From: Pseudomonadota bacterium
Lineage (GTDB): Bacteria; CALINM01
Direction: 5' to 3'
DNA length: 58,627 nt
Assembly (NCBI GenBank): GCA_026415985.1
Contig: JAOAGA010000002.1
Coordinates: 261 to 58,887, forward strand
The notes beneath the pieces were generated by a model. It did no database searches. It saw nothing but the letters and a program-made list of their open reading frames with translations, and had not been told where the DNA came from. Both the position numbers and the translations under genes were made by a program. Shown here piece after piece: positions 19,074-38,617 of the stretch (within the stretch, counting starts at the first letter, position 1; every line of letters begins with the position of its first letter).

Positions 19074-19129
19074 CAAGATTGATTAATTGTTTTTTATTTA
19101 ATATAATTAAAGAAAAAATAGGAGGCTCT

Positions 19130-21398: not shown

Positions 21399-21430
21399 AG
21401 CTTAATAACTATAGAAAGGAATCGGAGAGA

Positions 21431-22749: not shown

Positions 22750-22763
22750 CTCTAAAATAATCT

Positions 22764-23714: not shown

Positions 23715-23852
23715 CGGAAATTAAATGTTAAATATTAGTAAAATGACGTAAAAAGAAAAAGTTGGTAATTTTATATCAGATTTATTTATTTTGTTTTAAC
23801 TTTTATCTTCATTAATTTTTTTAAGAGGCATATTTTTTGCATAATATTTAAC

Positions 23853-23881
23853 TTGAAATTACTAATTTTTAAAGATATAAT
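23853..23881 (+). promoter_or_regulatory. Near-consensus sigma70 promoter (TTGAAA-17 nt-TATAAT) for the FG-GAP/ASPIC gene
   Basis: TTGAAA at 23853-23858, TATAAT at 23876-23881, AT-rich UP-like sequence upstream, AAAGGAG RBS ending at 23904, ATG at 23912. Confidence 0.5.
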
Positions 23882-23911
23882 TTAAAAAACTCTAATAAAA
23901 GGAGTTAGATT

Positions 23912-25369
23912 ATGAAGGTTAAATTGCTTGCTTTTTTCTTAGTTTTATTACTTCCGGTTTTTGCATCTGCACAGAATGTTAAGTTTGAGGATTATTCTGA
24001 GAAGGCAGGTGTGGCTTTTAAAGGAAATGGAAAAGGAGTTGCTATAGCAGATTATAATAATGATGGCCTCCTTGATATCCTGATTTCTAACAAAGGTGGC
24101 GGGATCAGATTGTACAAAAATAATGGCAACGGCACCTTTTCCGATGTCACAAAAGCTGTTGGTTTAGAAGATCTCGGTTATTGTTTAGGCTCTGTATGGG
24201 GTGACATAGACAATGACGGGTGGGTTGATTTATACGTTCCCAAAGGTGGTGTTTATGAGGTGGAAACCAATAGGCTTTTTAGGAACGAAGGTGGCAAGTT
24301 TGTTGATATTACAGATAAGGCCGGTGTTGCAGGTATAGTAGATGGTAAACCCGCTTTTACTTATGGTGCCGCTATGGCTGATTACGATAAAGATGGCTTC
24401 CTTGATATCTATCTTGCAAATTACGGTGTAGGTGCAAAAAATATTCTCTATAGAAATAATGGTAATCTCACTTTTACTGATGTTACTGATACTGCAGGAG
24501 TTGGTGATAAAAGCTGGAGTTGGAGTGCCACCTTTGCAGATGTTAATGGAGATGGTTGGCCTGATATTTATGTAGCCAACGGAAGATATCCTGCTGGTGA
24601 GCCAAATAAGCTATATATTAACAAAGGTGACGGGACTTTCGTTGAAATGGCAGAAAAGTTAGGAGTTGCCGATGACAACTGGTCATTAGGGGCATCCTTT
24701 GCAGATATTGATAACGATGGAGACCTTGACTTGTATGTGTCTAACTATATCGGAGACAATAATCTTTATATAAACGACGGTAAGGGTAACTTTACTAAGG
24801 CGACCAAAAATATTTCAGGTGCGCCTAAAGATCATTGGGGTAAAGGACCAACCTTTGGCGATATTAACAATGACGGTCTTTTAGATTTATACGAAGGTGA
24901 TTGCAAGCTTGCAAATCAGTTATATCTTAATACAGGTGGCGGTAAGTTTAAGAATATTATAAACACTATGCCCGCTTTGAAGTGCGAAACCGTCAGGACG
25001 AAAGGAACGGTCTTTGCTGATTTTAATAACGATGGTCAGCTCGATTTATATGTAGTTAACTGGGGTGCGGCAAATAAACTTTTTATAAACAAATCTAAGA
25101 ATCCAAACTGGTTAGAAATCAAACTCGTAGGTAGCAAGAGTAATAAAGATGCAATAGGCTCAAAAGTCTATGTATACGATGAAAAGGGAAAACTTGTTGG
25201 TTTCAGAGAAGTTGTTACATCTTCCGGCTTCTGTACACAGCCACCAAAGGTACAGCATTTTGGTTTTGCAAAGGCTGGAAAATATGATGTTAAGGTATTG
25301 TTCCCATCAGGTAAATCTGTAGAAAAGAAAGCAGTTGCATTAGGTCAGATACTAACAATCAACGAATAA
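23912..25369 (+). CDS. Secreted FG-GAP/VCBS-repeat beta-propeller protein with C-terminal ASPIC/UnbV domain
   Basis: Signal peptide ending ...VFASAQ. Seven repeats of the (A/G)D-x-(D/N)-x-DG-x-x-D-(I/L)-(Y/L) type (ADYNNDGLLDI, GDIDNDGWVDL, ADYDKDGFLDI, ADVNGDGWPDI, ADIDNDGDLDL, GDINNDGLLDL, ADFNNDGQLDL), then NWLEIKLVG...AIGSKV. Confidence 0.8.
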   Translation: MKVKLLAFFLVLLLPVFASAQNVKFEDYSEKAGVAFKGNGKGVAIADYNNDGLLDILISNKGGGIRLYKNNGNGTFSDVTKAVGLEDLGYCLGSVWGDIDNDGWVDLYVPKGGVYEVETNRLFRNEGGKFVDITDKAGVAGIVDGKPAFTYGAAMADYDKDGFLDIYLANYGVGAKNILYRNNGNLTFTDVTDTAGVGDKSWSWSATFADVNGDGWPDIYVANGRYPAGEPNKLYINKGDGTFVEMAEKLGVADDNWSLGASFADIDNDGDLDLYVSNYIGDNNLYINDGKGNFTKATKNISGAPKDHWGKGPTFGDINNDGLLDLYEGDCKLANQLYLNTGGGKFKNIINTMPALKCETVRTKGTVFADFNNDGQLDLYVVNWGAANKLFINKSKNPNWLEIKLVGSKSNKDAIGSKVYVYDEKGKLVGFREVVTSSGFCTQPPKVQHFGFAKAGKYDVKVLFPSGKSVEKKAVALGQILTINE

Positions 25370-25385
25370 ACTAATGGACTAAGAA

Positions 25386-25409
25386 GGGGGCTTTAGCCCC
25401 CTTTTTTTT
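25386..25409 (+). terminator. Rho-independent terminator
   Basis: GGGGGC-TTTA-GCCCCC hairpin (25386-25401) followed by T8 (25402-25409), 17 nt after the stop codon. Confidence 0.8.
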
Positions 25410-25437
25410 CGGCTCATTTCTTGTTAATCACTAATTT

Positions 25438-26415
25438 ATGAAGTTTTTATTCTTTTTTTTGTTTCTTTTCCTTTCACAAAAGGTCTATTCAGTTGAAATT
25501 ACAGTAAAAACATCTTTTAACTCTCAAAACGTGGAAGGAGTTGATGTTTTAGTTTATAAGGCAGAAGAACATATATATAGAGATAAATATCTTTTTAGTT
25601 CTCAGACAGATAAAGAAGGAAATGCAAGATTTAGACTCTCCGAAGGCAAATATTTTTTAGCGGCAGAAAAAAAGCTGAAAGACGGGATTTTGTTTGGGTT
25701 TTACGGACTCAACCCTATTTATATAAGGGAACCACAGACGATTAATTTGATTCTCGTGAAATATGAAAAAGATTTTATCAGGGAGTTAAGGGAAAAAAGG
25801 ATAGAAGGTTTTGTCTTTTATGAAGGCAATCCTGTTGAAAATGCAGGAATTTACATCTATCTTGATCTTTCCACGGAACTTAAGGGCCCGCCCTATTTAT
25901 TTGCAGTTACAGATGAAAGAGGTTTTTTTTCGTTAGATATACCTGAAGGAAGTTATTATATTATTTTTAGGAAAAGGCAGAATTCTGGGTTTGGTCCGCC
26001 ATCTTCTGGGGATTTAATAGGCTTTTTCCCTCAATTTCCTCTTGTTATAAATAAAAAGGGTGTAAAAATTTCGACAAACCTTTTTAAGATTCCTGAAAAG
26101 AGAGACCTCTCGAAAAACAAGAATCTCTTTCTTATAAAAGGAAAACTTGTCCTAAAAGATGGTAACCCTGCAGAAAAATATTATGTTGGACTATACGATA
26201 ATAGGGAACTTTTAGGAAAACCAGTTTATGTATCGACTCAAACGGATAGTAATGGAAATTTTTCAGTATATGTTAAAGAAAAAGGAAAATATTATGTTGG
26301 TATAAGAAACAATCTTGGTGATACTCCCTCTGAAGACGAGGAAGTCTTTTATTTTAACGAAATAGATATCACTGATGCCAATAAGGAGATGTATTTTGAG
26401 ATTATTATTGATTAA
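25438..26415 (+). CDS. Exported protein with three carboxypeptidase-regulatory-like beta-sandwich modules (paralogue 1)
   Basis: Sec signal MKFLFFFLFLFLSQKVYS. Three modules with (T/S)D-x-x-G-x-F...L-x-EG-x-Y(Y/F) and G-P-x3-GD motifs. Paralogous to 30496, 31536 and 33858. Confidence 0.6.
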   Translation: MKFLFFFLFLFLSQKVYSVEITVKTSFNSQNVEGVDVLVYKAEEHIYRDKYLFSSQTDKEGNARFRLSEGKYFLAAEKKLKDGILFGFYGLNPIYIREPQTINLILVKYEKDFIRELREKRIEGFVFYEGNPVENAGIYIYLDLSTELKGPPYLFAVTDERGFFSLDIPEGSYYIIFRKRQNSGFGPPSSGDLIGFFPQFPLVINKKGVKISTNLFKIPEKRDLSKNKNLFLIKGKLVLKDGNPAEKYYVGLYDNRELLGKPVYVSTQTDSNGNFSVYVKEKGKYYVGIRNNLGDTPSEDEEVFYFNEIDITDANKEMYFEIIID

Positions 26416-28162
26416 GATTGGTCTTTTGTCAGTATTTTGCCTTATTTTAAATACTAAAAATCTACAGGCCGATGAGATACTCAAGAATACAATAATAAAA
26501 AACAACAAAACTATAAGTGGCAGAGTCATAATAGAAGGCAAGGTGACCGTTGAAAAGGGGGCTGTTTTATATATTCAGCCGGGCACACAGATATTATTTA
26601 AAAACCTTGATACTGATGGAGATGGTATTTCTGAAACTTCCCTTTGGATATACGGTAATATAATAGCAAAGGGCGAGAAGGGCAGAAAAATCCTTTTTAC
26701 TTCCTATGAAAAGGAGAAAAAATGGGGAGACTGGAAGGAAATACAGATTAATCATGTGAAGGGTTTTGTATTTGATTATGTTGAGATTCAGTATAGTGAG
26801 TATGGGCTTCATATTCATTTTTCTGAAGGAGAGATTACAAACTCTATATTCAGATATAACAATGATTGCACAAGATTGGGAAACTCAAAAATTTCTTTCA
26901 AAGACAATCTCTTTGAGAAAAATACCGGTAAGGCACTGAATTTCACTAATTGTAATATCCTATTTGAAAGAAATGTTGTAAGAGAAAACAGAGAGGGGAT
27001 TTTTGTATTTGAAAAGAGTGGTTTTGTAACGATAAGAGAAAACAATATTTATAATAATTTCAAAAATATAAAAACGGGAGATTTTTTTAAAGACAAACTT
27101 GTTTTAGAAAGAAATTTTATATATCCCGCAAATAATATCGAAGGTGAAGTAAGATTTGTCGCTGTTAATGAGCCATTTTACGGAATTCTTCCCGACGATA
27201 AAGATGCCTATATAAATTTTATTATCGAGACACAAGGATATGTTGATGGTGGCGGGGTAATAGATGGAGAGAGGTTATACTTTCCCTCCTTTGATGGCAA
27301 TATTTATGAGTATGATTTAAAAAATGGGTATGTCAGGAAATTTTTCATAGATGATTTTTCCGATGCTGTTCCTGTTCTTTATGGCAAAAAACTTTTTTCC
27401 CAAAACTGGCGGGGAGATATAGTTACCTTTGATTTACTTACAGGTAATAAAAAAATCATAGCGTCCTTTGACAAAACATTAAAAGATGATCACAGAAACC
27501 CATCTCCGGTGGTGTTTGATAATAAAGGAGTCTTTTTAAGCCCCGGTGGGAGCCTTTTAGTAATAAATCTTACTGACAATAAAGAATTATTCAGAACAAA
27601 ACTTAACGGAGAGTTCAGGGCAAAACCTTTATTAAATGGTGATCTTTTGTATATTCCTTCGGTAACAGGCGATATATATACGCTATCATTTATTGATTAT
27701 AGTTTAAATAAAGTAAGTTTTGATGGAAGTTTTTATTCCTCTCCTGTTTTTTATGAAGATTCTATAGTTATTCTGAGCAAAGAAGGAAAAGTTTTTTTTC
27801 TCGATAAAAATCTGATTGTAAAAAGAGTTGTCGATTTAAAAAGCTCTTTCAGATACCAATCTCCGATAGTCTTTAATGAAAGTTTATATTTATTTTCTCT
27901 TGATGGTAAAATATTTAAACTTAAGCAGAACGGAGAGCCTGTTCTTTTGAAAGAGACGGAAGAAATATTTACATCAACACCTATTTTATATAAAGGCTTT
28001 ATTGTTATACCGGGATTTTATGGTAATCTTTACTTCTATAGAGATGACAAAACGATAAGAATATCAAATCTGGGAGAGATGCAATTTTCTCCTTTAGTAT
28101 ATGATGATTTTATAATAATTGGCTCAAGGGCAAACAGGGTCTATGGAATTAAAATCTGGTAA
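26375..28162 (+). CDS. Exported right-handed beta-helix domain fused to PQQ-like beta-propeller
   Basis: Signal-like N-terminus. Beta-helix repeats (NSIFRYN, DNLFEKN, RNVVREN, ENNIYNN), then propeller blades (DGNIYEYDLKNG, GDIVTFDLLTG, GDIYTL, EGKVFFLD, DGKIFKL, GNLYFY). Alternative TTG start at 26396, behind AAGGAGA at 26383-26389. Confidence 0.6.
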   Translation: MPIRRCILRLLLIKIGLLSVFCLILNTKNLQADEILKNTIIKNNKTISGRVIIEGKVTVEKGAVLYIQPGTQILFKNLDTDGDGISETSLWIYGNIIAKGEKGRKILFTSYEKEKKWGDWKEIQINHVKGFVFDYVEIQYSEYGLHIHFSEGEITNSIFRYNNDCTRLGNSKISFKDNLFEKNTGKALNFTNCNILFERNVVRENREGIFVFEKSGFVTIRENNIYNNFKNIKTGDFFKDKLVLERNFIYPANNIEGEVRFVAVNEPFYGILPDDKDAYINFIIETQGYVDGGGVIDGERLYFPSFDGNIYEYDLKNGYVRKFFIDDFSDAVPVLYGKKLFSQNWRGDIVTFDLLTGNKKIIASFDKTLKDDHRNPSPVVFDNKGVFLSPGGSLLVINLTDNKELFRTKLNGEFRAKPLLNGDLLYIPSVTGDIYTLSFIDYSLNKVSFDGSFYSSPVFYEDSIVILSKEGKVFFLDKNLIVKRVVDLKSSFRYQSPIVFNESLYLFSLDGKIFKLKQNGEPVLLKETEEIFTSTPILYKGFIVIPGFYGNLYFYRDDKTIRISNLGEMQFSPLVYDDFIIIGSRANRVYGIKIW

Positions 28163-30512
28163 AAAGGCCTTTTATCTGATTTTTTTTGTTTCTTTTTCTG
28201 CCTTTACCTTTGAGCTGTTACTAACAAGAATATTTTCAGTTCTTATGTGGTATCATTTTGCTTCTCTCTCCATAGGTGTGGCAATGCTTGGACTGGGTGG
28301 AGGCGGTATTTTTTCTTATGTGATAAAAGATAAGTTAAAAGAACGAACTATCTATAATGTCCTTATCATTTACTTTTTATCCTTTATCCTGATACATAGC
28401 TTTTTTTTCTATTTTCAACATAGTCCGGAAAAGATAACCCCCTTTCTTGCCTTTTTTCATCAGCCCTATTTTCAGCCCTTTCAGAGAGGTGTGTTTTTTA
28501 GTTTTAATTTTTCAACACTTATTATATTAACAATTGCCTATATTGTTATTACAATCCCCTTTTTTTTAGCAGGTTTTGTAATTTCCTCACTTTTTAAGAT
28601 CCGCTCGAGAGAGATTAAAAGACTATACTTTTATGATCTTTTGGGTGCATCTTCAGGGGCACTTTTTGTTGCAGTTGTTCTTAACTATGTAAGTCCAATG
28701 GCTCTCTTTTCACTTATTGCCGTAATTGGTTTTGCTTTGTTGGCAAAAGAGATTAAGGTCTTATCTATTCCGTTTTTTATAATAGGCATTGTTTTTCTTT
28801 ATTTTAGCTTATTTCAGAAAAGTGATGAAATACCCATAGCAAGAGGTAAGGTAGCAAATGAGATAATCTGGGTTAAGTGGAATAATTTTTCAAGGGTGAT
28901 CCTCTATAATTTAAAAGAAGACGAGTGGTCAAGCCCCTTTGGGCAAAGTAAATATTACCATGGTTATGTTCCGAAACAGTGGGGACTTTTGGTTGATGAT
29001 ACTGGTTACACTGTAGCTTCAGAGTTTCCTGATAATAGAGATAAGTTGGAATTTTTCAGATGGAACATAATATCTTTACCATATCTTATTAATAATAACA
29101 GTGCTTTGATAATAGGTCCCGGAGGAGGAAAGGATATACTTTGTGCCATAGCTATGGGAGTTAAAAATGAAAATATCACTGCCGTTGAACTAAACCCCCT
29201 TATTGTGTCTGCGGTAAATGACGTTCTAAGCAAAGAGACAGGTAGGCTCTATGATAAGGTAAATACACATGTTTCTGAGGGGCGGAGTTTTTTAGAAAAA
29301 AGGGGTGGACAAACTAAGTTCGATGTTATACAGGCAACTTCAGTTTACGGAAGAATTCCACCTGCAGCGGGTATTTTTACCTTTGCTGAAGACAATCTCT
29401 ATACTAAAGAGGCCTTTAGAACCTATTTTTCTTCGTTAAGAGAAGGTGGGCTATTATCTTTATCGAGATTTATCTATGAACAAACTGTTCCTAAAATGAT
29501 TGCCCTTTCTATAACGGGGCTTAAAGATTGTGGGATAGAAGATTTTTCTAAGTCAATCTTTTTAGCTAAGGAAAGAGGTCTTGCAATGGTTCTTACTAAG
29601 AAAGGAATATTTACAAAAGATGAGATAGACATATTGATTAAATACTGTGATGAAAAAGGTTTTGATGTGTTATATTCACCATATTATGATTATGATAATC
29701 TTTACAGCAATTTAATTAAAAGCAGATATGAAGATATAAAAATACCCACCGATGATAGCCCCTTTTATTACTATAACTTATCTAAAAGGGATTTTTTGAA
29801 ATCCTTTTTTAGCCATAACGATAAATTTGAAGAGAGAGGTATGGAGATCTTAAAATTTTTTATTATCATAAGTCTTCTCTTTATATTTTTAATTCTTTTT
29901 TTCCCACTAATTCTTAGGAGAGATAAAAACTATGTCATAAATCGCAATAACTATCTTGTGGGATTATACTTTTTTTTAATTGGTGTTGGTTATATATTGA
30001 TAGAGATAATATTCATTAAGTCTTTCTCACTTTTTTTAGAGACTCCTATGTATTCCATGATCTTTGTTACCTCTGCTATGTTATTTTTTTCAGCACTTGG
30101 TTCTCTTTTTTCTATAAAAGTAAATGAAAGAAAATCTATGATAAAACTTTTTGTGGCATTGATATTGCTCTTATTTTTATTTGGATTTATGTTAGATTTC
30201 ATCAATAAGATTCTTTATCTCAATCTGTATGTGAAAATCGTTATAACATTAATATTCGTAGGTATTCCATCCTTTTTTATGGGGATGCCATTTCCTTATT
30301 TATTAAACTCTCTTGGCAAAAGAGATGAAGGACTAATCCCCTGGGCAATAGCGGTTAACAGCGGAGCCTCTGTTTTAGGAAGTTTTCTTTGTCTTATCAG
30401 TGTTGTAAACTTAGGTTTTAAAGGTTCCTTTTTTATAGGGGCGCTGTTATACATCTTTGTTTTTATAGTTTTTTTGTTAATAAAAGGTAGCGAAAATGAA
30501 AACTTTGTTTAG
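28143..30512 (+). CDS. Polytopic membrane protein with embedded spermidine-synthase/SAM-methyltransferase-like domain
   Basis: About 7 TM helices, then a soluble domain with LIIGPGGGKD (29115-29135), VELNP and GRSFLE, then about 7 more TM helices. Start set at the ATG at 28143 (MELKSGKK). Confidence 0.7.
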   Translation: MELKSGKKAFYLIFFVSFSAFTFELLLTRIFSVLMWYHFASLSIGVAMLGLGGGGIFSYVIKDKLKERTIYNVLIIYFLSFILIHSFFFYFQHSPEKITPFLAFFHQPYFQPFQRGVFFSFNFSTLIILTIAYIVITIPFFLAGFVISSLFKIRSREIKRLYFYDLLGASSGALFVAVVLNYVSPMALFSLIAVIGFALLAKEIKVLSIPFFIIGIVFLYFSLFQKSDEIPIARGKVANEIIWVKWNNFSRVILYNLKEDEWSSPFGQSKYYHGYVPKQWGLLVDDTGYTVASEFPDNRDKLEFFRWNIISLPYLINNNSALIIGPGGGKDILCAIAMGVKNENITAVELNPLIVSAVNDVLSKETGRLYDKVNTHVSEGRSFLEKRGGQTKFDVIQATSVYGRIPPAAGIFTFAEDNLYTKEAFRTYFSSLREGGLLSLSRFIYEQTVPKMIALSITGLKDCGIEDFSKSIFLAKERGLAMVLTKKGIFTKDEIDILIKYCDEKGFDVLYSPYYDYDNLYSNLIKSRYEDIKIPTDDSPFYYYNLSKRDFLKSFFSHNDKFEERGMEILKFFIIISLLFIFLILFFPLILRRDKNYVINRNNYLVGLYFFLIGVGYILIEIIFIKSFSLFLETPMYSMIFVTSAMLFFSALGSLFSIKVNERKSMIKLFVALILLLFLFGFMLDFINKILYLNLYVKIVITLIFVGIPSFFMGMPFPYLLNSLGKRDEGLIPWAIAVNSGASVLGSFLCLISVVNLGFKGSFFIGALLYIFVFIVFLLIKGSENENFV

Positions 30513-31542
30513 ATTAATGTTTTTATCATTACTGTTTCTTAGTGCCTGTGGTAAGGATGAGTTTTCGGTCAGAGGCAGGGTCTTATATAATGATAGGCCC
30601 CTGGAAGATGCTGAAGTATCGGTCTATCTCAAGTTAGAAAAGGACAAGGAAAGACCACCGGTAAAGGTTGTAGCTACTGATAAAAATGGTTTTTTTGAGG
30701 TGAGGCTTAAGAGAGGAAAATATTTTCTGACGGGGAGGAAAAGGTTAGAAGATCAGGGCGAGATAGATATGCTTGTCGGGAGTTACTCTGATACTCCCAT
30801 TGATGTAAAATCAGATCTGGTTTTAAAAGACTGGACCCTTCTTTCCAAAAAAAACAAGGAAGATTTCAAAAAAGGCACAGGAATTAAAGGTATTGTGAAA
30901 AATTTTAAAGATTTTAGAAAGGTAAGAGTCTATGCATATAAAGATACAAATAGCGGGCTTAAAGGTCCCGATTATATTTCCTTTAGTAAAATAGATAAAG
31001 ATGGACAGTTTCAGATGGATTTAAAAGAAGGTGATTTTTATATATCTGTCAGGGAGAGAAAAGGTAGTTTTGCAGGTCCACTGAAGGAAGGTGACAGGGC
31101 TTATGATTATCCAAATAATCCAATAAGACTAACCAAAGATAAATATTTAGATTTAGGTATCATGAATCTGAAAGAAGTTGATAGAAAAAAATTAGAGGAA
31201 CTTAGAAAGACAGGATATTTAAGGGAAGGGGCAATAACAATAAAAGGGGTTGTAGTCGATGAAAATAAAAAACCAGTCAAAAATGTTTATGTGATGATTT
31301 ACAAAGATAGTGAGATGATTGGCAGACCTTTTACAATATCGCTACCTTCCAAAGAAGACGGGACATTTACCATCACTTTGCCTGAGGAAGGTAAATATTA
31401 TGTAGGAGCAAGAACAAAGATCGGCGGGCCTGCGGAACCGGGTGAAAAAATTGGTTACATAAAAGGTTCATCCGATAAGTCAATAAGTGTCAAAAAGGGT
31501 GAGATAAAAAATATAATTATAGAGGTAAAGGAGATATGGTAA
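30496..31542 (+). CDS. Lipoprotein with three carboxypeptidase-regulatory-like beta-sandwich modules (paralogue 2)
   Basis: Lipobox LFLSAC. Modules with TDKNGFFEVRLKRGKYFL, IDKDGQFQMDLKEGDFYI and KEDGTFTITLPEEGKYYV. Loops GPLKEGD and GGPAEPGE. Confidence 0.6.
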   Translation: MKTLFRLMFLSLLFLSACGKDEFSVRGRVLYNDRPLEDAEVSVYLKLEKDKERPPVKVVATDKNGFFEVRLKRGKYFLTGRKRLEDQGEIDMLVGSYSDTPIDVKSDLVLKDWTLLSKKNKEDFKKGTGIKGIVKNFKDFRKVRVYAYKDTNSGLKGPDYISFSKIDKDGQFQMDLKEGDFYISVRERKGSFAGPLKEGDRAYDYPNNPIRLTKDKYLDLGIMNLKEVDRKKLEELRKTGYLREGAITIKGVVVDENKKPVKNVYVMIYKDSEMIGRPFTISLPSKEDGTFTITLPEEGKYYVGARTKIGGPAEPGEKIGYIKGSSDKSISVKKGEIKNIIIEVKEIW

Positions 31543-32573
31543 AAGCTCTGATTTTTCTTTTAAATTTTGTTTTCTTATCCACAATAATTCAGGCAGAAGA
31601 GTTTGGTACAGTTAAAGGCAGAACCGCCTATAAAGGTGAGGTAATAGAGAATGTTTCAATTCTTGTTTATAGAGATAGTGAAAATATCGACTTGAAAAAG
31701 CCGGATAGTGTCTCAGCTAAAACTGCCATTGACGGAACTTATGAGTTTAATTTAAAACCCGGAAAATACTATCTTATTGCCTTAAAAAAACAAGGAAACA
31801 ACAGTAACTTCATCCCGGAAACGGGCGATTATTATTGTTTTTATAGTGGAGCCCCCGTTGAGGTTGTTTCCGGAGGTATAAGTTATGTTGGTTTCAATCT
31901 TATAAAGGTTGGTAAGGAAGGACCAATAAAAAGGGTAAAGGGAGATGGCGGAATATATGGAGAGGTTTTTTTTGAAGGTAAAAGATTAGAAAAATCCTAT
32001 ATCTATGTATATAAGGATTTAAAAACAGGGCTTAGGGGGCCTGCGTATTTTGTCTATCCCTCAAAGGACGGCAGTTTTTCGATAAATCTGCCGGATGGTA
32101 AATACTATATTATCGCAAGAAAAAGAGCAAAAGGCGGGATGTATGGACCTGTGGAAGAAGGGGATTATTTTAATTTTTATTATGGAAATCCTGTAGAGAT
32201 AAAAAAGGGGCAGATGAAGAGTGTAAATATTGAGTGTGTTAAAAGGTTAAGTCAGCTTGAGGAGGGAGTGGGGTTTTCTGAGATTAGTGGCTATGTTAAA
32301 GATAAGAATGGTAACCCTGTAGCAGGTCTTTTTGTTTTATTTTATCAGAGTAAAAACATGCAGGGGAAACCTCTTTATATCTCAGCAAGAACTGACAGTA
32401 AAGGCAGATACTCTATGAAAGTTCCCAAAGGAACCTATTATTTATTGGCGAGAGAAAATATTGGCGGACCTCCCTCTTCAGGTGAGTGGTATGGTCAGTA
32501 TAAAGAAGCCATAACTGTAAAAGACAGTGAAAAGCTTGATTTAATCAACGTAATCATAGAGAGGGTAAAATAG
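31536..32573 (+). CDS. Exported protein with three carboxypeptidase-regulatory-like beta-sandwich modules (paralogue 3)
   Basis: Signal MVKALIFLLNFVFLSTIIQA. Modules with IDGTYEFNLKPGKYYL, KDGSFSINLPDGKYYI and TDSKGRYSMKVPKGTYYL. Loops GPVEEGD and GGPPSSGE. Confidence 0.6.
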   Translation: MVKALIFLLNFVFLSTIIQAEEFGTVKGRTAYKGEVIENVSILVYRDSENIDLKKPDSVSAKTAIDGTYEFNLKPGKYYLIALKKQGNNSNFIPETGDYYCFYSGAPVEVVSGGISYVGFNLIKVGKEGPIKRVKGDGGIYGEVFFEGKRLEKSYIYVYKDLKTGLRGPAYFVYPSKDGSFSINLPDGKYYIIARKRAKGGMYGPVEEGDYFNFYYGNPVEIKKGQMKSVNIECVKRLSQLEEGVGFSEISGYVKDKNGNPVAGLFVLFYQSKNMQGKPLYISARTDSKGRYSMKVPKGTYYLLARENIGGPPSSGEWYGQYKEAITVKDSEKLDLINVIIERVK

Positions 32574-32574
32574 A

Positions 32575-33861
32575 ATGAAAAAGATAGTTTTAATAATGGC
32601 TATTTTTCTATTATCTTTGGAAAACTCCTTTTCACAGCCTGTTTTGGAAGGAAAGGTAAAGATAGAGGGCAGGAAGGAGTTTGCTGAAGGGGCGTTAATA
32701 AAGTCCGGAACAGAGATAATTATTGAAAAGGATAGTGAGTTAGTATTTAAGGGAAAAGTTGAGTCACAAAATATAAAAAAGTCAGAAATAAAGATATTGG
32801 GGAAGGAAAACAGCAAAATATCTTTCGAGCAGGCGGGTGTAAACATTAATTATCTTTCAGTGGAAAATCTTGGCATTCTTGAATTTATAGAAAGTAATGT
32901 AAATTTAAAAAATGTAAAAATAGAAAGGGCTAAGGTTGGTTTGAAAGTTACAAAAAACACCACAGGCTTTATTGAGAATTTAAATATAAGGGATTCGGAG
33001 ATAGGGTTTGTAACAGAGCTAAAGGCAAAGGTTGTTGTTTTAAACAGTACCTTTAACAATAACCAAACAGCCTTTATAGCAGATCAGGCGGGAGTTGCCG
33101 AGATAAAGAACTCCAACTTTTTCAAAAATAATCTGGCCATAGGTGTAAATTTAGATGGGGGAATAAGGATTTTTAACTCAAATATCTATGAAAATGAGGC
33201 GGGAATTACCTTTGTAAAACATATCGGCAGTATTATAAACGAGAATACCTTTAAAAATAATAAAATGGCCATTTATGCTGAGTATATGACAAACATAAAT
33301 ATTGAAAAGAATCAGTTTTTAAAGAATGATACCGCTGTTAAGTTTTATCAGCTTGTTAACGGTAAAATAAGAGGAAATAATTTCAGCAAAAACAGGGAAG
33401 CACTGTGGATAGAGAAAAAATCAAATCCGGATATCCGGTATAATACCTTTACTGAAAACAAGGTGGGGATTTTCTGTGATTTCTCTTCCTATCCGACTAT
33501 AACTTTAAATAATTTTCTTAATAATGATCTTCATATTAAATTGGGTATATATCAATCAGCTGACTTTGAAAACACTACAAGCTCATTTCTGACACAGATG
33601 CAGGAGATGTTGACTCAACAAAGCAAGAGATTATCCCCAAAGGATCAGAAAAGAAAAAGGTATGTGGGAGAGATTTTTGCAAAAAAGAACTACTGGGATG
33701 AGAAAACAAGAAAAGAGATTGATACTAAAGAAAATGTCTCAACCATCTATGATGGATATGATATGGGTGAGGTTTCTTATGAAGGTTTTGGCGATACAAA
33801 ATATAAGGTTGACACAGTTGCCCTTAAACCCTATCTCACTGAGTTAGTCAAAGATAAATGA
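32575..33861 (+). CDS. Exported right-handed parallel beta-helix repeat protein (paralogue 2, longest helix)
   Basis: Signal MKKIVLIMAIFLLSLENSFS. About 10 repeats of roughly 22 aa of the N-x-F-x-x-N-x-x-(G/A)-I type (NSTFNNNQTAF, NSNFFKNNLAIG, NSNIYENEAGIT, ENTFKNNKMAIY, KNQFLKNDTAV, GNNFSKNREAL, YNTFTENKVGI, LNNFLNNDLHI). Confidence 0.6.
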   Translation: MKKIVLIMAIFLLSLENSFSQPVLEGKVKIEGRKEFAEGALIKSGTEIIIEKDSELVFKGKVESQNIKKSEIKILGKENSKISFEQAGVNINYLSVENLGILEFIESNVNLKNVKIERAKVGLKVTKNTTGFIENLNIRDSEIGFVTELKAKVVVLNSTFNNNQTAFIADQAGVAEIKNSNFFKNNLAIGVNLDGGIRIFNSNIYENEAGITFVKHIGSIINENTFKNNKMAIYAEYMTNINIEKNQFLKNDTAVKFYQLVNGKIRGNNFSKNREALWIEKKSNPDIRYNTFTENKVGIFCDFSSYPTITLNNFLNNDLHIKLGIYQSADFENTTSSFLTQMQEMLTQQSKRLSPKDQKRKRYVGEIFAKKNYWDEKTRKEIDTKENVSTIYDGYDMGEVSYEGFGDTKYKVDTVALKPYLTELVKDK

Positions 33862-34874
33862 AAAAACTGTTATTTTTTCTTTTCTTCTTTTTAATTTCAG
33901 AATCTTACGGAAAAGAAGGTAAAAATCTGTCTGGCAGGGTTTTGTTAGATAACTCTCCGGTTGGTAAGGGAGAGGTTATAGCACGGGAAATTGATAAAAA
34001 TGAAATATTTAAAACAGAGACCGATGAGAATGGTTATTATAATATTACACTCAAAGAAGGTGTTTACTCTGTTGAAGCCCAAAAAAGGATAGGTAACATT
34101 TTATATATCGGTTTTTCCGGCAAGAACCCTATCTTGTTAAAGGAAGATACCTATGCGGGAATAAAACTCCTTCCCCCATCTAAAATGACAAGAAAAAAAC
34201 TCAGCGATAGCAAAACAGAAATTGTATTAAAGATTTTATACAACGGAAAGCCTGTTTCTTCAGCGAGAGCCTATCTTTACTTAAAGGAAAAGGATATGAA
34301 AGGGATGCCCTTCTTTTATTCTGAACCTACAGATAAAAGCGGTATTATAAAAATCAGAAATATAATTGAAGGCAGTTATTATATCGTAGTTAGAAAGAAA
34401 AAAGACCATAAACCGTTAGGACCTATTTCAGAAGGTGATTTAATTGGGTTTTTTAGCCAAAATCCTTTAAATATAAAGGATGGCTACAGATATACCATTG
34501 AGATAAATATGTTTCAAAAGATACAGGATGAGATTACAAGCCCATTAGATATCCAAAATGTTAAAAAGATTACCGGGATAGCTCTCAGTGAAAGCGGTGA
34601 ACCTGTTTCAGGAGTCTATGCCTTTTTATATACAAAAAAAGAGATGGGCCATGAAAGACCTATATCTATATCCCGCAAAACTGGAGATGATGGAAAATTT
34701 GAATTATTAGCACCCTTTACAGGCAAGTTTTATTTAGGCGTAAGACAGTTTTACGGTGGAACACCGGTTCAGGGAGAGCTATACGGGTTGTATGATAAAA
34801 CTCATGATCATCATATTAATGTCTTTGATAATATAACAGGGATTATTATAAGGGTTAAAAAGATATTGAGATGA
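33858..34874 (+). CDS. Exported protein with three carboxypeptidase-regulatory-like beta-sandwich modules (paralogue 4)
   Basis: Signal MKKLLFFLFFFLISESYG. Modules with TDENGYYNITLKEGVYSV, TDKSGIIKIRNIIEGSYYI and GDDGKFELLAPFTGKFYL. Loops GPISEGD and GGTPVQGE. Confidence 0.6.
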   Translation: MKKLLFFLFFFLISESYGKEGKNLSGRVLLDNSPVGKGEVIAREIDKNEIFKTETDENGYYNITLKEGVYSVEAQKRIGNILYIGFSGKNPILLKEDTYAGIKLLPPSKMTRKKLSDSKTEIVLKILYNGKPVSSARAYLYLKEKDMKGMPFFYSEPTDKSGIIKIRNIIEGSYYIVVRKKKDHKPLGPISEGDLIGFFSQNPLNIKDGYRYTIEINMFQKIQDEITSPLDIQNVKKITGIALSESGEPVSGVYAFLYTKKEMGHERPISISRKTGDDGKFELLAPFTGKFYLGVRQFYGGTPVQGELYGLYDKTHDHHINVFDNITGIIIRVKKILR

Positions 34875-35704
34875 AGAAGATTTTATTTTTCCTTTTGTTT
34901 ATACCGTCTATTCTTTATTCAGGTGATATTAAGATATATGAGATTAATGGCGTAGAAATCTGGTCCGGTGAGAGGGTTATAGATGGGATTGTTGTAGTGA
35001 AAGAAGGCGCAAAACTTATAATAAAAGGGGGCACGAAGGTTTACTTTAAACCTTTTGATACAGATGGAGATGAGATAGGAGATGGCGAGCTTTATGTTGA
35101 GGGAGAAATATATGTATATGGCGAAAAAGATCAGCCCGTAATATTCACCGCTCTTGCTGACAGGGTAGAACCTAAGATGTGGAAATATGTTATGGTTAAT
35201 CATTCAAGGTATGCTCACATAGAGTATGCTATATTTGAAGGCGCTTTTTCAGGCCTTCAGGTACATTTTTCAAAGGCAAAAGTGAGAAATAGTATATTTC
35301 GAAATAATATTGATGGCTTTAGGTTTTCGACCGCTAATATTGATGTTTGCAATTGCGAGATGCGGGAAAATAAGTATGGCATTCGGTATGAAGAGAGAGA
35401 CTCAACAGGTATAATTCGCTATTGTAACATAACCGGTAACGAGGTTGGCATATTTCCTGTTACTAAAGCAGAAGGTAAAGTGATTTTTAGTTATAACAAT
35501 GTAGTTCAAAACGAGTATAATATAAGGATGGGCGAAGATCAGAAAAAAGATTTAGACTTTTCTAACAATTATTATGGTTTTACCAATGAGAGAGGTATAA
35601 GAAAAACCTTTTATGACAGAGGACGTGATAAAAATTTGTCCACCGTTAAAATAAGGTCTTTTTTAAAGAAAAAAGTTACTTTAGGAGAAGATAAATGTCA
35701 GTAA
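34871..35704 (+). CDS. Exported right-handed beta-helix protein (paralogue 3, short)
   Basis: Signal MKKILFFLLFIPSILYSG. The N-terminal segment GAKLIIKGGTKVYFKPFDTDGDEIGDGELYVEGEIYVYGEKDQPVIFTA is clearly homologous to the start of the 26375 product. Repeats NSIFRNN, NCEMREN, ITGNEVG, YNNVVQN. Confidence 0.6.
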   Translation: MKKILFFLLFIPSILYSGDIKIYEINGVEIWSGERVIDGIVVVKEGAKLIIKGGTKVYFKPFDTDGDEIGDGELYVEGEIYVYGEKDQPVIFTALADRVEPKMWKYVMVNHSRYAHIEYAIFEGAFSGLQVHFSKAKVRNSIFRNNIDGFRFSTANIDVCNCEMRENKYGIRYEERDSTGIIRYCNITGNEVGIFPVTKAEGKVIFSYNNVVQNEYNIRMGEDQKKDLDFSNNYYGFTNERGIRKTFYDRGRDKNLSTVKIRSFLKKKVTLGEDKCQ

Positions 35705-36234
35705 AAAAAATTTTTTTTACAGTTTTATTTGTGGTTCTTTTAATCAGAATTTCAGATGCCTGCGTTGGCAAGACAATTTATGTCGGCCATCTTTCCGGAA
35801 AGGGCGATGAGATTGTAGGAAATATATTGGCTCGGCTTATTACTGAAAGGACCGGTACCTCGGTAAAGTTAAAAAAATACAATGATACCAGCTCACTATT
35901 AAAGGCAGGCACAGGTGGAGAAGTTGATATTTTTGTGGTAGATGATAGGTTTATAGCTGAAACAACGGGACTTAAAAACCGAGACGAAGCAAAAAATATT
36001 TACAACGTTAACCATAATCTGATCTGGCTTAAGGCAATAAATGAAAAAGAAGACTTTTTAGCACCCGTTATAAGAAAAGATACGTTGAAAAAATTTCCCG
36101 CACTGCCAAGATTGCTGGAGAAATTAACAGGTCTTATAAATAATACACAGATAGAGGAGTTAAAGACTGAGGTAGAGAAGAAAGGTATGAAAGATACCAT
36201 AAAGGATTTTTTAAAGAAAAAGAGTTTAATTTAA
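35695..36234 (+). CDS. Exported, truncated OpuAC-like (glycine-betaine-type) substrate-binding domain protein
   Basis: Signal ending ISDA|C. GKTIYVGHL..GDEIVGNILARLITERTGTSVKL...LLKAGTGGEVDIF resembles the N-lobe of OpuAC/ProX binding proteins. Only 179 aa, and no ABC permease or ATPase nearby. Confidence 0.35.
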   Translation: MSVKKIFFTVLFVVLLIRISDACVGKTIYVGHLSGKGDEIVGNILARLITERTGTSVKLKKYNDTSSLLKAGTGGEVDIFVVDDRFIAETTGLKNRDEAKNIYNVNHNLIWLKAINEKEDFLAPVIRKDTLKKFPALPRLLEKLTGLINNTQIEELKTEVEKKGMKDTIKDFLKKKSLI

Positions 36235-36246
36235 AAGAGTAAAAAA

Positions 36247-37125
36247 ATGAACAGAAGAAACTTTTTAAAATATCTTGCCTTTTTAGGAGCCAATTTTGCC
36301 TTTACAAAGGATATTCTTGCCCAAAGTAAAAAAGAACTTGCTATTTCTGAGGGTAAGGATTATGAAAAAATAACCAAAAATGCCATTGATGCACTCGGTG
36401 GTATCTCGAAGTTTGTAAAAAAAGGAGATGTTGTTGTTATCAAACCCAACATAGGCTGGGACAGAAAACCTGAAGAAGGTGCAAACACCCATCCTCTTGT
36501 TGTTAAAGCTGTTACTGAAGAATGTTTAAAGGCAGGTGCCAGAAAGGTAAAGATTTTTGACAGAACCTGCAATGATCCGAGAAGATGTTACGTAAACAGC
36601 GGTATGGCTAATCTTTTACAAAACATAAAAGGTGTTGAACTTAAACACCTGGACAATGAAAAGTATAAGAATTATAAAATTAACGGTGTCTTTATTAAAG
36701 AATGGGAGCTTTATGAAGAGGCTATCAACTGTGATGTATATATAAATATCCCGGTGGCAAAACATCACGGATTGACAGGCTTGACTTTGGCGTTAAAAAA
36801 CATTATGGGAATTATGGGTGGTAACAGAGGATACATTCACAGAGAAATTGAAGAATCTCTTTGTGATTTTAATAGTTTTGTTAAAATTCATCTTCACATA
36901 GTAGATGCTACAAGAATATTATTAAGAAACGGTCCTCAGGGTGGGGGAGTTAAAGATGTTAAAATTTTAAACACGGTATTGGCATCTACGGATCCTGTTC
37001 TTGCAGATGCCTATGCGACAACACTATTCGGTATAAAGCCAGAGGAAATATCTATCACCAAAAGAGCCTATGAAAGAGGTTTGGGTGAGATAAATATCAA
37101 CAGGGCAAAAATAATAAAAGTTTAA
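36247..37125 (+). CDS. Tat-exported DUF362-family protein
   Basis: Twin-arginine signal MNRRNFLKYLAFLGANFAFT. The body (VVIKPNIGW, HPLVVKAV, KHHGLTGLTLALKNIMG) is typical of DUF362. Confidence 0.65.
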   Translation: MNRRNFLKYLAFLGANFAFTKDILAQSKKELAISEGKDYEKITKNAIDALGGISKFVKKGDVVVIKPNIGWDRKPEEGANTHPLVVKAVTEECLKAGARKVKIFDRTCNDPRRCYVNSGMANLLQNIKGVELKHLDNEKYKNYKINGVFIKEWELYEEAINCDVYINIPVAKHHGLTGLTLALKNIMGIMGGNRGYIHREIEESLCDFNSFVKIHLHIVDATRILLRNGPQGGGVKDVKILNTVLASTDPVLADAYATTLFGIKPEEISITKRAYERGLGEININRAKIIKV

Positions 37126-37126
37126 G

Positions 37127-38617
37127 ATGAAAATAACAATTCCCCGATTATCACAAATAGTCTTCTTTATAATTTTTCTGGTTCTTTTTATTAATACCGA
37201 TTACAGAGGCAAAGACGAGATTAATATTGCTATTAATAGCTTCTTTCGGGCAGATCCGCTTGTTCTTGTAACTTATATTCTTTCAACCTTTTCTTTCATT
37301 ACCCTGCTAATTCCTGCTCTTCTCATGGTGATAGCAACATTTTTCCTGGGAAGATTTTTCTGCGGATGGATATGTCCCCTCGGTGCTTTCCTGGATTTTG
37401 TGTCACTTAAGATAAAAAAAAACAGTCAGTTAAAAATATTTAAAGGAAAATTTAAATATTACTTTCTTTTTACACTACTTTTTCTTTCATTGTTTAATAT
37501 CAATTATGGCGGTGTTTTTGATCCCATTGCCATCTTTATACGGTTTCTTACCTTTTTTGTATATCCCTTATTCGGATATGTTGTTAAATCAGGATGGGGT
37601 TGGCTATACGGTATATTCGGAAACAAGATTGAGTTTGCAGAGGGTTTTTACAAAATTATCAAATATAACATTCTGCCTTTTAGGGATACCTTTTACCCCC
37701 TTGCCTTTTTATCAAGCTTTCTTTTTATACTTATAGTTTTCTTGGAAAGATATGAAAAGAGATACTGGTGTAGGCATCTCTGTCCTTTAGGCACACTTCT
37801 TGGGATTTTCAGCAAATTTTCAATATTTAAGAGATTGCCAAAAAAATTATGTTCCGACTGTGGTGAATGTAAAAACATCTGTCCAACAGCTTTCGACAGA
37901 GAGATTTTAAACGAGGAAAATTGTATTATCTGTCTTGATTGTCAGGTTAAATGTAAGTTTGGTAGGGTGAAGTTTAGTCCTTTTAAGTTTAACATTAAAT
38001 CTGCAAATCCTGATTTAAATAAGAGGTTTTTTATAAACTCTTTTATCTTTGGGTTTGTATTATCAAATATCTTTAAAAACGGAAATTACAATAACAAATT
38101 GCTTCGCCCCCCCGGCGTAGCCGATGAAAAAGAGTTTCTGAAAAAATGTGTCCGGTGTGGTGAGTGCATGAAAATTTGCCTTAAAAATGCCCTATATCCT
38201 TCCTATTTAGAGGGGGGTGTATATAGCTTATACACACCCATTTTAATACCAAGAAAAGGTTATTGTGAGTATAATTGTAGTCTCTGCGGTCAGGTTTGTC
38301 CTACAAAGGCTATACCTAAGCTACCTATTGAAGAAAAGAAAAAGCAGGTTATAGGAATTGCCCATTTTGACAAAAACCATTGTCTTCCCTATGCAAAGAA
38401 AACAAACTGTCTTGTTTGTGAAGAACATTGCCCGATTCCCGGTAAGGCAATAAAGATTAAAAAGAGAAGAGAAATAGGTTATAATGACAAAGCTTTTGAA
38501 CTATTGGAACCCTATGTTGATGAGAAGCTATGCAACGGTTGTGGTATCTGTGAGTATGTATGCCCCTTGACAGGAAAGTCAGGAATAGAAGTTTTCCGTG
38601 AGAAACACAGCTTTTAG
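37127..38617 (+). CDS. Membrane-anchored polyferredoxin (NapH/NosR/YccM-like)
   Basis: TM helices with CGWICPLG (37361-37384) and CRHLCPLG (37769-37792). Several 4Fe-4S motifs follow (CSDCGECKNICP, CIICLDCQVKC, CVRCGECMKIC, CSLCGQVCP, CLVCEEHCP, CNGCGICEYVCP). Confidence 0.7.
   Translation: MKITIPRLSQIVFFIIFLVLFINTDYRGKDEINIAINSFFRADPLVLVTYILSTFSFITLLIPALLMVIATFFLGRFFCGWICPLGAFLDFVSLKIKKNSQLKIFKGKFKYYFLFTLLFLSLFNINYGGVFDPIAIFIRFLTFFVYPLFGYVVKSGWGWLYGIFGNKIEFAEGFYKIIKYNILPFRDTFYPLAFLSSFLFILIVFLERYEKRYWCRHLCPLGTLLGIFSKFSIFKRLPKKLCSDCGECKNICPTAFDREILNEENCIICLDCQVKCKFGRVKFSPFKFNIKSANPDLNKRFFINSFIFGFVLSNIFKNGNYNNKLLRPPGVADEKEFLKKCVRCGECMKICLKNALYPSYLEGGVYSLYTPILIPRKGYCEYNCSLCGQVCPTKAIPKLPIEEKKKQVIGIAHFDKNHCLPYAKKTNCLVCEEHCPIPGKAIKIKKRREIGYNDKAFELLEPYVDEKLCNGCGICEYVCPLTGKSGIEVFREKHSF

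Follow-up and report, generated by a model that had tools for sequence, protein, structure and literature searches.

The nos accessory machinery consists of NosD, NosFY, and NosL, together with NosR or, in clade II, with NosG and NosH. It is one of several described systems that share parts with a cluster of about 15 genes at positions 21431 to 38617 of a 58,627-nucleotide (nt) stretch of DNA from a Pseudomonadota bacterium (contig JAOAGA010000002.1). That whole stretch is called the window here, and all coordinates count from its first letter. NapGH is a quinol dehydrogenase, and the polytopic polyferredoxin PFD (Q1NSB0, from delta proteobacterium MLMS-1) is inserted by both the Sec and the twin-arginine translocation (Tat) pathways, with its NapG-like clusters outside the membrane (Tooke et al. 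2017, PMC5449189). FmdE proteins have a His2Cys2 site that binds Zn or Ni in solved homologues, and most FmdE genes adjoin metal transporters (PMC2954224). A Cys-Ser-Cys (CSC) sequence is the signature motif of the SO_0444 Cu/Zn efflux and SaoE families (bioRxiv 10.1101/2022.07.06.499078), Pfam places DUF362 in the same clan as DUF2088, the N-terminal domain of LarA (PMC11770544), and Zcp is a periplasmic zinc-buffering DUF4198 protein with a His triad of H29, H31, and H142 (PMC12663993). Each part of the cluster in the window has a known fold or family, and its polyferredoxin is of a known type. However, the combination is undescribed in the literature that we searched, and it departs from every compared system in the features that define that system. 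Therefore, we judge it, from a limited full-text library, to be a new kind of system.

The cluster is like the nos accessory machinery in having a periplasmic beta-helix protein that matches Pfam NosD, lipoprotein partners, a putative thiophilic exporter, and NapG/NapH-like electron input. By analogy, its operating logic may resemble that of the nos machinery, with a different target. However, the exporter in the window is an ArsP-type permease, with no ABC pair such as NosF/NosY. The cluster also adds beta-sandwich paralogues, an FG-GAP protein, a transmembrane (TM) protein with a spermidine synthase (SpeE) fold, which we call SpeE-TM, a DUF362 protein, an FmdE protein, and a degenerate AAA protein. 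A true NosD was rejected, with TIGR04247 scores of 38.4 and 16.8 bits against a cutoff of 300; only the generic Pfam NosD/beta-helix repeat was matched. No nosF, nosY, nosL, or nosZ was found among the scanned window genes or in the related loci L001 and L003.

The reading that we prefer, to which we give a probability of about 0.4, is that the genes encode a modular, co-inherited envelope system. It would join the export of a thiophilic cargo to a supply of electrons from quinol and a scaffold of beta-helix and beta-sandwich proteins. This reading was drawn from sequence and predicted folds.

A sequence-only reading of the window had described genes 25438 to 38617 as one eleven-gene operon for a candidate envelope system. 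All eleven plus-strand open reading frames (ORFs) were present, with junctions of -41 or -20, -20, -17, -7, +1, -4, -4, -10, +12, and +1 nt. The first of these depends on the start of the second gene. A TTG at 26396 is preceded by an AAGGAG Shine-Dalgarno sequence and gives an N terminus that resembles that of the closest relative. Therefore, the -20 overlap is likelier than the -41 overlap. The N termini of the non-membrane products agreed with the export signals assigned to them, including the LSAC lipobox of the 30496 product and the MNRRNFLK of the 36247 product, and no product of the run has a CxxCH heme motif, as had been noted. Pfam matches and paralogy supported four three-module beta-sandwich proteins and three beta-helix proteins, one of them with a pyrroloquinoline quinone (PQQ)-like propeller. 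Pfam and NCBIfam also agreed on a half-size OpuAC-like protein, a DUF362 protein, and a Fer4_5 polyferredoxin. The genes are a linked set, but not with the extent or the unity first proposed. The 5' boundary had been drawn too short, with the AAA, FmdE, permease, and FG-GAP genes (21431 to 25369) preceding 25438 in a conserved unit of about 15 genes, and a terminator and sigma-54 motifs argue against a single transcription unit (see below). Junctions of 12 nt or less also account for 66% of the window junctions outside the unit. Tight spacing is therefore general in the window and by itself weak evidence, and it is synteny that carries the case.

A homologue of the 789-aa SpeE-TM protein with 36% identity is encoded by Geopsychrobacter electrodiphilus. 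This genome and one metagenome contig have an identical gene order, including the four extra 5' genes. A scan with one genome per species yielded 72 loci, and the order was kept in most of them. These loci belong mostly to the Desulfuromonadales (Geopsychrobacter, Geothermobacter, Malonomonas, Trichloromonas, Desulfuromonas, and metagenome-assembled genomes [MAGs] of Geobacteraceae) or the Deferrisomatales, and the window organism falls in a close clade of "Proteobacteria/Deltaproteobacteria" MAGs. Among the distant loci, 31 extend at least 9.5 kb downstream; beta-sandwich genes were found in 29 to 30 of these, beta-helix genes in 27 to 28, the OpuAC-like gene in 22, and the DUF362 and polyferredoxin genes in 24 each. 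Another count of 31 covered distant loci with at least 8 kb upstream (helix-propeller gene in 21, permease in 20, AAA in 18, and FG-GAP in 15). Protein identity between the window and the Desulfuromonadales ranged from approximately 27% for the beta-helix proteins to 55 to 59% for the AAA and FG-GAP proteins. Thus, neither scattered homologues nor a characterized match for the whole set was found. The genes are syntenic in two clades that share only 26 to 60% protein identity, and beyond, and the searched full-text literature (a limited library) held no description of the combination, in agreement with the earlier suggestion that it is unlike any characterized system.

Genes at the edges were excluded on the same basis. 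The def, fmt, DUF116, rpe, and MgtC genes follow the cluster only in four close relatives, so all five were placed outside the system. The zinc-ribbon/DUF3426 gene at 19932 was also rejected as a member, since it is not conserved beside the cluster outside the window clade. The product of this gene (19932 to 21398), the immediate upstream neighbor of the cluster, has a DUF3426 domain and, at its N terminus, a zinc ribbon of the MJ0042 type that is weakly GltJ-like. The rest of the window is ordinary core chromosome, with aroA, cmk, ispH, rpsA, mutS, glnD, dnaG, rpoD, mdh, and frdA-like genes.

Variant loci showed which genes stay together. Deferrisoma camini has AAA-FmdE-permease-CPD-helix/propeller-OpuAC-DUF362-polyferredoxin without SpeE-TM (CPD denotes a beta-sandwich gene). 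Desulfuromonas versatilis has only AAA-FmdE-permease-CPD-helix/propeller-NosD-DUF3467-OpuAC, with no DUF362 or polyferredoxin gene at that locus. A Nitrospirae MAG has AAA and then CPD-FG-GAP-CPD-helix/propeller-NosD-CPD-CPD. In loci anchored on the AAA gene, the tightest core therefore consists of the export genes, one beta-sandwich gene, the helix-propeller gene, and the OpuAC-like gene, which stays with the AAA-FmdE-permease genes in reduced variants. The SpeE-TM block and the redox pair usually accompany this core as additions to it, and some variants anchored on SpeE-TM lack the AAA-FmdE-permease export genes. In Trichloromonas, Geothermobacter, and related loci, the OpuAC, DUF362, and polyferredoxin genes lie on the opposite strand beside the remaining genes, and these rearranged loci gain an EB_dh heme-b protein, a HEAT lipoprotein, a second NapH-like protein, and DUF3467. 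The gained genes form a divergent unit in L012 (3426 to 8008), L043, L069, and L038, where the EB_dh protein (ethylbenzene dehydrogenase gamma-like) is a lipoprotein and the NapH-like protein is a membrane protein. A multiheme cytochrome c gene adjoins the cluster in L012. A Nitrospirae MAG and Deferrisoma camini each have a gene for a small heat shock protein, HSP20, close to or immediately before the degenerate AAA gene (L079, 1727 to 2212; L080, 9488 to 9925).

Table 1. Genes and transcription signals of the conserved cluster, with window coordinates.
Feature	Coordinates	Strand	Evidence
Degenerate AAA protein, 293 aa	21431..22312	+	PDB 5vc7 (VAT/p97 D2 domain), E=1e-63
FmdE-family protein	22288..22749	+	Pfam FmdE, E=8e-24; PDB 2glz, E=2.7e-12
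ArsP_1-family permease with Cys-Ser-Cys	22764..23714	+	Pfam ArsP_1, E=1e-37
FG-GAP promoter region	23827..23881	+	Sigma-54-type GGCAT-N5-TTTGCA (23827-23841), then sigma-70-like TTGAAA-17-TATAAT (23853-23881)
Exported FG-GAP/ASPIC (CRTAC1-like) beta-propeller	23912..25369	+	Pfam FG-GAP_3, E=9e-61, and UnbV_ASPIC; Sec signal
Intrinsic terminator after FG-GAP gene	25381..25409	+	AAGAAGGGGGC-TTTA-GCCCCCTTTTT hairpin, then T-run; -20.1 kcal/mol, z=-2.8
CPD1, exported, three beta-sandwich modules	25438..26415	+	Pfam CarboxypepD_reg/DUF4198; 35% identical to CPD3
Beta-helix plus PQQ/BamB-like propeller protein	26375..28162 (likely start TTG 26396)	+	Pfam Beta_helix, NosD, Beta-prop_ACSF4; weak BamB matches
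SpeE-TM, 7 TM + SpeE-fold domain (approximately residues 226-564) + 7 TM, 789 aa	28143..30512	+	Fold match, topology prediction
CPD2, lipoprotein, three beta-sandwich modules	30496..31542	+	LSAC lipobox; C18 in 93% of sequences; Pfam
CPD3, exported, three mutually similar beta-sandwich modules	31536..32573	+	Pfam CarboxypepD_reg, E=2e-16; approximately 44% identical to distant orthologues
Exported right-handed beta-helix protein	32575..33861	+	Pfam NosD, 67 bits versus cutoff 23.6
CPD4, exported, three beta-sandwich modules	33858..34874	+	Pfam; H265 and H318 invariant
Small exported beta-helix protein	34871..35704	+	Pfam Beta_helix; H132 invariant
Half-size OpuAC-like protein, 179 aa	35695..36234	+	Invariant Cys at signal-peptide junction (A-C/VGKT)
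Tat-exported DUF362 protein, LarA-like fold	36247..37125	+	Pfam DUF362, E=5e-53; AlphaFold pLDDT 80.7
Polytopic polyferredoxin	37127..38617	+	NCBIfam NapH and NapG (residues 305-492), Fer4_5

The cluster begins with three genes that might form an export module. The AAA protein, which is approximately 55% identical to its Desulfuromonadales orthologues, has both the AAA and the AAA_lid_3 domains of Pfam. All 29 orthologues have Ile or Met in place of the Walker A Lys (GPLGxG[IM]T) and Tyr in place of the sensor-1 Asn (GSCYR); their Walker B motif is SDC[ED]W, and their Arg-finger region reads KEKKRFNRK. These Walker and sensor motifs rule out an active AAA unfoldase, and the protein is probably not an ATPase. 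Orthologues keep C110, C117, C126, C170, and a C-terminal DCPHHY.F motif. This is consistent with an AAA fold that does not hydrolyze ATP and whose former nucleotide site has become a pocket lined by Cys, and the orthologues may constitute a family of metal- or cluster-binding pseudo-ATPases restricted to this cluster.

The FmdE gene probably starts at ATG 22312, which overlaps the AAA stop codon by 1 nt. Its product scored 84.6 bits with Pfam PF02663, for which the cutoff is 22.9, and H21-G-H23-x-C25 (FHGHxC) and C61 are invariant. In the permease, both Cys residues of C67-S-C69 are invariant in 41 sequences. The ArsP_1 match, the CSC motif, and the FHGHxC site are features that these proteins have in common with the ArsP/SO_0444/SaoE and FmdE families. 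However, the NCBIfam matches of the permease are weak (92 bits) and fall below both cutoffs, 325 for SaoE and 300 for SO_0444 Cu/Zn efflux. No description of a CSC permease or FmdE paired with a degenerate AAA protein and a periplasmic scaffold was found in the searched literature.

The last two genes encode a putative redox pair. R3, R4, and F6 of the MNRRNFLK motif of the DUF362 protein are invariant in 33 homologues. Its AlphaFold model (the table gives its predicted local distance difference test [pLDDT] score) matched LarA-family structures in all of its top 19 PDB matches by Foldseek, with E values of 7e-7 to 1.7e-4. PDB sequence searches found no match to solved LarA structures, and the Pfam match was to DUF362, not DUF2088. 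LarA enzymes are nickel-pincer-nucleotide racemases/epimerases of about 420 aa, whereas the 36247 product is about 290 aa, is Tat exported, and has a conserved Cys3His4 set (H82, C93, C108, C114, H173, H174, and H198).

The polyferredoxin had been called NapH/NosR-like. The NapH part of that description agreed with our results, but the NosR part did not, since the protein is a fusion of NapH and NapG, a type known for insertion by both Sec and Tat. Its NapH-like part has TM helices, two CX3CP motifs (C79/C83P and C215/C219P), and two four-Cys motifs, and its NapG-like part has four four-Cys motifs. The motif Cys residues are invariant, except in the last four-Cys motif (C469 to C479, 85%). Like PFD, the protein starts with a NapH-like part and ends with a NapG-like part with four four-Cys motifs; between them, a KR/RR motif of twin-arginine type precedes a weakly hydrophobic fifth helix, after which come positive charges. 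Because the protein matches this known type, the four [4Fe-4S] clusters of the NapG-like part should face the periplasm. Some features differ from PFD. The motif just before the fifth helix has RR in 22 of 26 orthologues and in stand-alone copies, whereas the window copy has KR (N-K-R-F-F-I), and two rather than three cytoplasmic four-Cys motifs are evident. A further difference, from NapGH, is that the partner is a DUF362 protein rather than nitrate reductase.

SpeE-TM had no Pfam match. A profile of its family matched the spermidine synthase 1inl in the PDB (E=5e-9), and its AlphaFold model (pLDDT, 82; predicted template modeling score, 0.85) had SpeE structures, with a beta-hairpin N-domain and a Rossmann domain, as all of its top 50 Foldseek matches. 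The earlier description of a 14-TM protein with a SpeE-like domain is therefore supported for the fold, but not for an enzyme of this type. Profile alignment places GPGGGKD against the GGGDGG of SpeE, so Gly occupies the position of the gatekeeper Asp for decarboxylated S-adenosylmethionine (dcSAM). DVIIIDS-TDP of SpeE, which contains the catalytic DSTDP, aligns with the family consensus DVIQASAVYGRIPP, and DSTDP is replaced by DVIQATSVYGRIPP in the window protein. The catalytic loop is QATSVYGRIPP in the window protein and follows the pattern QA[ST][AS]V[FY]GR in the subfamily. With the gatekeeper Asp and both catalytic Asp residues gone, a canonical SpeE aminopropyltransferase is ruled out. 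Even so, the highly conserved domain keeps the Gly-rich loop and the ribose-binding Glu (E349) of SpeE.

The domain lies between two 7-TM bundles and, unlike SpeE itself, is predicted to be periplasmic rather than cytoplasmic. This placement follows the positive-inside rule, because the Lys/Arg-rich loops are all on the side opposite the domain: over 19 homologues, the inside loops had 18.5 Lys plus Arg and the outside loops had 4.4. An internal duplication of the two 7-TM halves was rejected (the hhalign alignment was colinear but not significant, E=0.28). The approximately 800-aa 7TM-SpeE-7TM architecture defines a very large family, which at E<=1e-30 numbers 5,147 representatives. Among its more distant members, however, the cluster neighbors are almost never present (73 members, 26 to 31% identity), and most wider-family members keep one Asp (VDTW) where the cluster subfamily has V[FY]GR. 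The cluster-linked proteins are therefore a specialized subfamily, and only this one subfamily of the family is cluster linked. Neighbors in the wider family (dockerin, FAD oxidase, TPR, glycosyltransferase, MlaD, PCMT, and DUF488-like; metagenome loci L089 to L161) were too heterogeneous to serve as a functional clue. The only literature matches for "membrane-bound spermidine synthase" were unrelated.

Most of the remaining products are beta-sandwich and beta-helix proteins. The four beta-sandwich paralogues, CPD1 to CPD4, are 28 to 35% identical to one another. Three of the four score above the DUF4198 cutoff of Pfam and, like Zcp, all are periplasmic. Even so, a Zcp-like DUF4198 protein was rejected for them, because the matches cover only profile positions ~144 to 206 of 209 (the C-terminal sandwich), the His triad is missing, and each protein has three modules. 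The helix-propeller protein has invariant H146xH148 and D371-D-H-R, and the small beta-helix protein, 32% identical to it over 212 aa, is a paralogue of its N-terminal part. In the Desulfuromonadales, the helix-propeller protein, the small beta-helix protein, and CPD2 carry clear lipoboxes. PDB sequence searches with the NosD-like protein and CPD3 returned nothing useful. C23 of the OpuAC-like protein is invariant in 34 sequences. A full two-lobe OpuAC binding protein (about 260 aa) was excluded for this product by its length and by a Pfam match confined to the last 55 profile positions (202 to 256 of 257).

The FG-GAP propeller is the most conserved protein of the cluster, with approximately 59% identity to its Desulfuromonadales orthologues, and its gene is probably a monocistronic unit. 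The sigma-54 pattern occurs three times in the window, with 0.28 expected. Upstream of FG-GAP, AGGCAT-N5-TTTGC is present in the window and in three of four close relatives; the fourth, L006, reads AGGTAT. The sigma-70-like site there matches at 11 of 12 positions and is the best in the region. The terminator after the gene, a hairpin followed by T8, was identified by reading and folding the intergenic sequence; a consensus terminator scan did not list it. A hairpin and T-run of different sequence occupy the equivalent position in at least 11 loci of both clades, and the Nitrospirae locus has a strong hairpin at the same place but no clean T-run.

Sigma-54-type motifs recur at other gene boundaries. 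In the Desulfuromonadales, 18 of 24 distant loci have TGGCAT-N5-TTGCT (10 of 11 matches) ahead of the AAA gene, as do the Desulfuromonas versatilis locus and the Nitrospirae MAG. After the terminator, about 8 loci have TGGAAC-N5-CTGCT. No sigma-54 motif was found upstream of the AAA gene of the window itself. Between the terminator and the CPD1 gene lie 28 nt that, within the window clade, contain a conserved TGGCTyA-N5-TTGw without the -12 GC. This motif ends 12 to 14 nt before the CPD1 ATG in 5 genomes, and the ATG has no Shine-Dalgarno sequence. The motif may be a weak sigma-54 promoter that gives a nearly leaderless mRNA, or the eleven genes may rely on read-through. Because the terminator after FG-GAP and the sigma-54-type motifs are conserved, the region is probably three or more transcription units rather than one operon, and the system is probably under sigma-54 control. 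A further exact sigma-54 match, GGCATTGATATTGCT at 30155 to 30169, lies inside the 3' part of the SpeE-TM gene, approximately 340 nt before the lipoprotein gene, and could be an internal promoter or a chance occurrence. No riboswitch or other RNA element reached the Rfam gathering score in the whole window, and positions 21200 to 25600 gave only subthreshold noise.

From this gene content and synteny, and from the motifs, folds, and regulatory motifs, we infer a topology, a cargo, a direction of flow, and a product. In the reading that we prefer, the FmdE His2Cys2 site and the Cys-rich AAA protein would probably hand a thiophilic cargo to the CSC permease, which would export it. This cargo would more likely be a soft metal ion than a sulfur species. 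The NapH-NapG polyferredoxin, inserted by Sec and Tat, would take electrons from quinol or from the cytoplasm and pass them, through four [4Fe-4S] clusters in the periplasm, to DUF362. The periplasmic scaffold would be made of the beta-helix, three-module beta-sandwich, and half-size OpuAC-like proteins and an abundant FG-GAP propeller, with several of these being lipoproteins. In the full version of the system, the periplasmic SpeE-fold domain of the 14-TM protein, having lost its aminopropyl transfer residues, would have some other binding or catalytic role. If this combination of metal and electrons is correct, it would show a new way to build or maintain a metal center outside the cytoplasm.

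Several points weigh against this reading. It assigns no concrete chemistry to the SpeE-fold domain, whose periplasmic placement comes from charge bias and from counting helices. Elsewhere, CSC permeases are interpreted as efflux pumps for detoxification, and such a pump would need no scaffold. The beta-sandwich proteins have few conserved His or Cys residues, with no conserved His in CPD1 to CPD3. Together with the partial DUF4198 match and the missing Zcp His triad, this leaves metal binding by these proteins unsupported. FG-GAP, FmdE, SpeE-TM, DUF362, and polyferredoxin are each absent from some variants. The window polyferredoxin has KR in place of RR; KR variants can work in some Tat signals. 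Finally, the DUF362-polyferredoxin pair occurs alone, as a widespread two-gene unit, in Syntrophorhabdus and other anaerobes (L076 to L078), and these stand-alone copies are 62 to 65% identical to the window copy, compared with 47 to 51% for the Desulfuromonadales cluster copies. Therefore, the pair may be a general periplasmic redox unit that merely lies beside the cluster.

A bolder version goes further and is doubtful. Here the locus would encode an envelope machine in which a Cys-lined route (FmdE, a degenerate AAA ring, and the CSC permease) and a transmembrane Fe-S wire inserted by Sec and Tat feed a lipoprotein scaffold of beta-helices and beta-sandwiches, the SpeE domain performs new chemistry that does not use dcSAM, and the product is an extracytoplasmic metal or metal-sulfur redox structure or cofactor. 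Were such a new machine to exist, it would matter for how metal- and sulfur-respiring bacteria handle their substrates.

Assembly or modification of an envelope polymer, as the sequence-only reading had proposed, is in our view unlikely. The beta-helix and beta-sandwich proteins would bind or process a glycan, peptidoglycan, or a protein layer, and, judged by Pfam names, surface proteins and carbohydrate-active proteins often contain beta-helix (CASH/NosD-type) and CarboxypepD_reg modules. That FG-GAP has its own promoter and terminator, as is often the case for abundant structural subunits, and that several scaffold proteins are lipoproteins would suit this idea. However, Pfam and NCBIfam scans found no glycosyltransferase, flippase, polymerase, ABC exporter, or outer membrane secretin or porin in the cluster. 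The SpeE-fold protein would transfer an alkyl or aminoalkyl group, or polymerize, at the outer face of the membrane. Retention of the Gly-rich loop and E349 favors such a role, but both catalytic Asp residues are missing, and we know of no S-adenosylmethionine or dcSAM available in the periplasm. Furthermore, reduced variants hold the export genes, scaffold, and OpuAC without any SpeE-TM. The OpuAC-like protein would bind an amine or sulfonium compound, yet it is half of a binding protein. The redox pair would supply reducing power, and FmdE, the CSC permease, and the Cys-rich AAA protein are left unexplained. The added 5' parts point more towards metal or sulfur handling and redox chemistry than towards assembly or modification of a surface structure.

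Alternatively, the locus might encode a respiratory or detoxifying periplasmic reductase, with DUF362 as its catalytic subunit and NapH-NapG as its quinol dehydrogenase, in keeping with the role of NapGH. This, too, we think is improbable. The helix, sandwich, and propeller proteins would capture an insoluble or unusual acceptor (S0 or polysulfide, a metal oxide, a metalloid, or an organometal), and the CSC permease would export a toxic product or a cofactor. Tat export and the conserved Cys3His4 set of DUF362 fit a catalytic role, and variant loci add the heme-b EB_dh protein and a second NapH-like protein and have multiheme cytochromes next door. The carriers include cultured Fe(III) or S0 reducers (species of Geopsychrobacter, Geothermobacter, Deferrisoma, Desulfuromonas, and Geoalkalibacter), which also favors a reductase. 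However, the Desulfuromonas versatilis locus keeps other cluster genes without DUF362 or polyferredoxin, and in other taxa the pair occurs without the other cluster genes. LarA-fold enzymes are racemases or epimerases and not reductases, and the cluster has no outer membrane conduit.

The possibility that these are unrelated small operons packed into a gene-dense, single-strand region is very remote and is largely refuted by synteny: the 66% of tight junctions elsewhere in the window, the near absence of minus-strand genes, the terminator and separate promoter motifs that divide the region, the autonomy of the DUF362-polyferredoxin pair in other taxa, and the wider SpeE-TM family without these neighbors all suit it, but the same neighbors recur around the SpeE-TM subfamily and the degenerate AAA gene despite wholly different flanking genes, and rearranged loci keep gene groups adjacent.

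About 15 genes are thus kept together across at least three phylum-level lineages of anaerobes, yet they are undescribed in the searched literature. The five cultured genera named above are studied for extracellular electron transfer and metal cycling. Several parts are unusual in themselves: an AAA nucleotide site with Cys replacements, a SpeE fold predicted to be extramembrane and lacking catalytic residues, a Tat-exported LarA fold, and a NapH-NapG fusion with Fe-S clusters expected on both sides of the membrane. The cluster also gives a functional context to the family of approximately 800-aa membrane SpeE-like proteins and to the Tat-DUF362/polyferredoxin pair.

The window has other features. 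Strand bias is extreme, with only two credible minus-strand genes, 14814 to 15497 (VTT/DedA) and 41982 to 42647 (C_GCAxxG_C_C), and GC skew is positive across the whole window, as expected for a leading-strand stretch of one replichore. Three ORFs, 6454 to 7437 (327 aa), 19079 to 19870 (263 aa), and 50890 to 51360 (156 aa), matched no Pfam family at the thresholds used; a homologue of the 19079 to 19870 product is annotated as DUF6588 in L003. The gene at 16440 to 19073 encodes an 877-aa protein that joins DHH/DHHA1 and two CBS domains to a poly(A) polymerase-type nucleotidyltransferase. This product matched the NCBIfam A-adding tRNA nucleotidyltransferase over its full length with 846 bits, below the cutoff of 1440, and the same fusion is present in L003.

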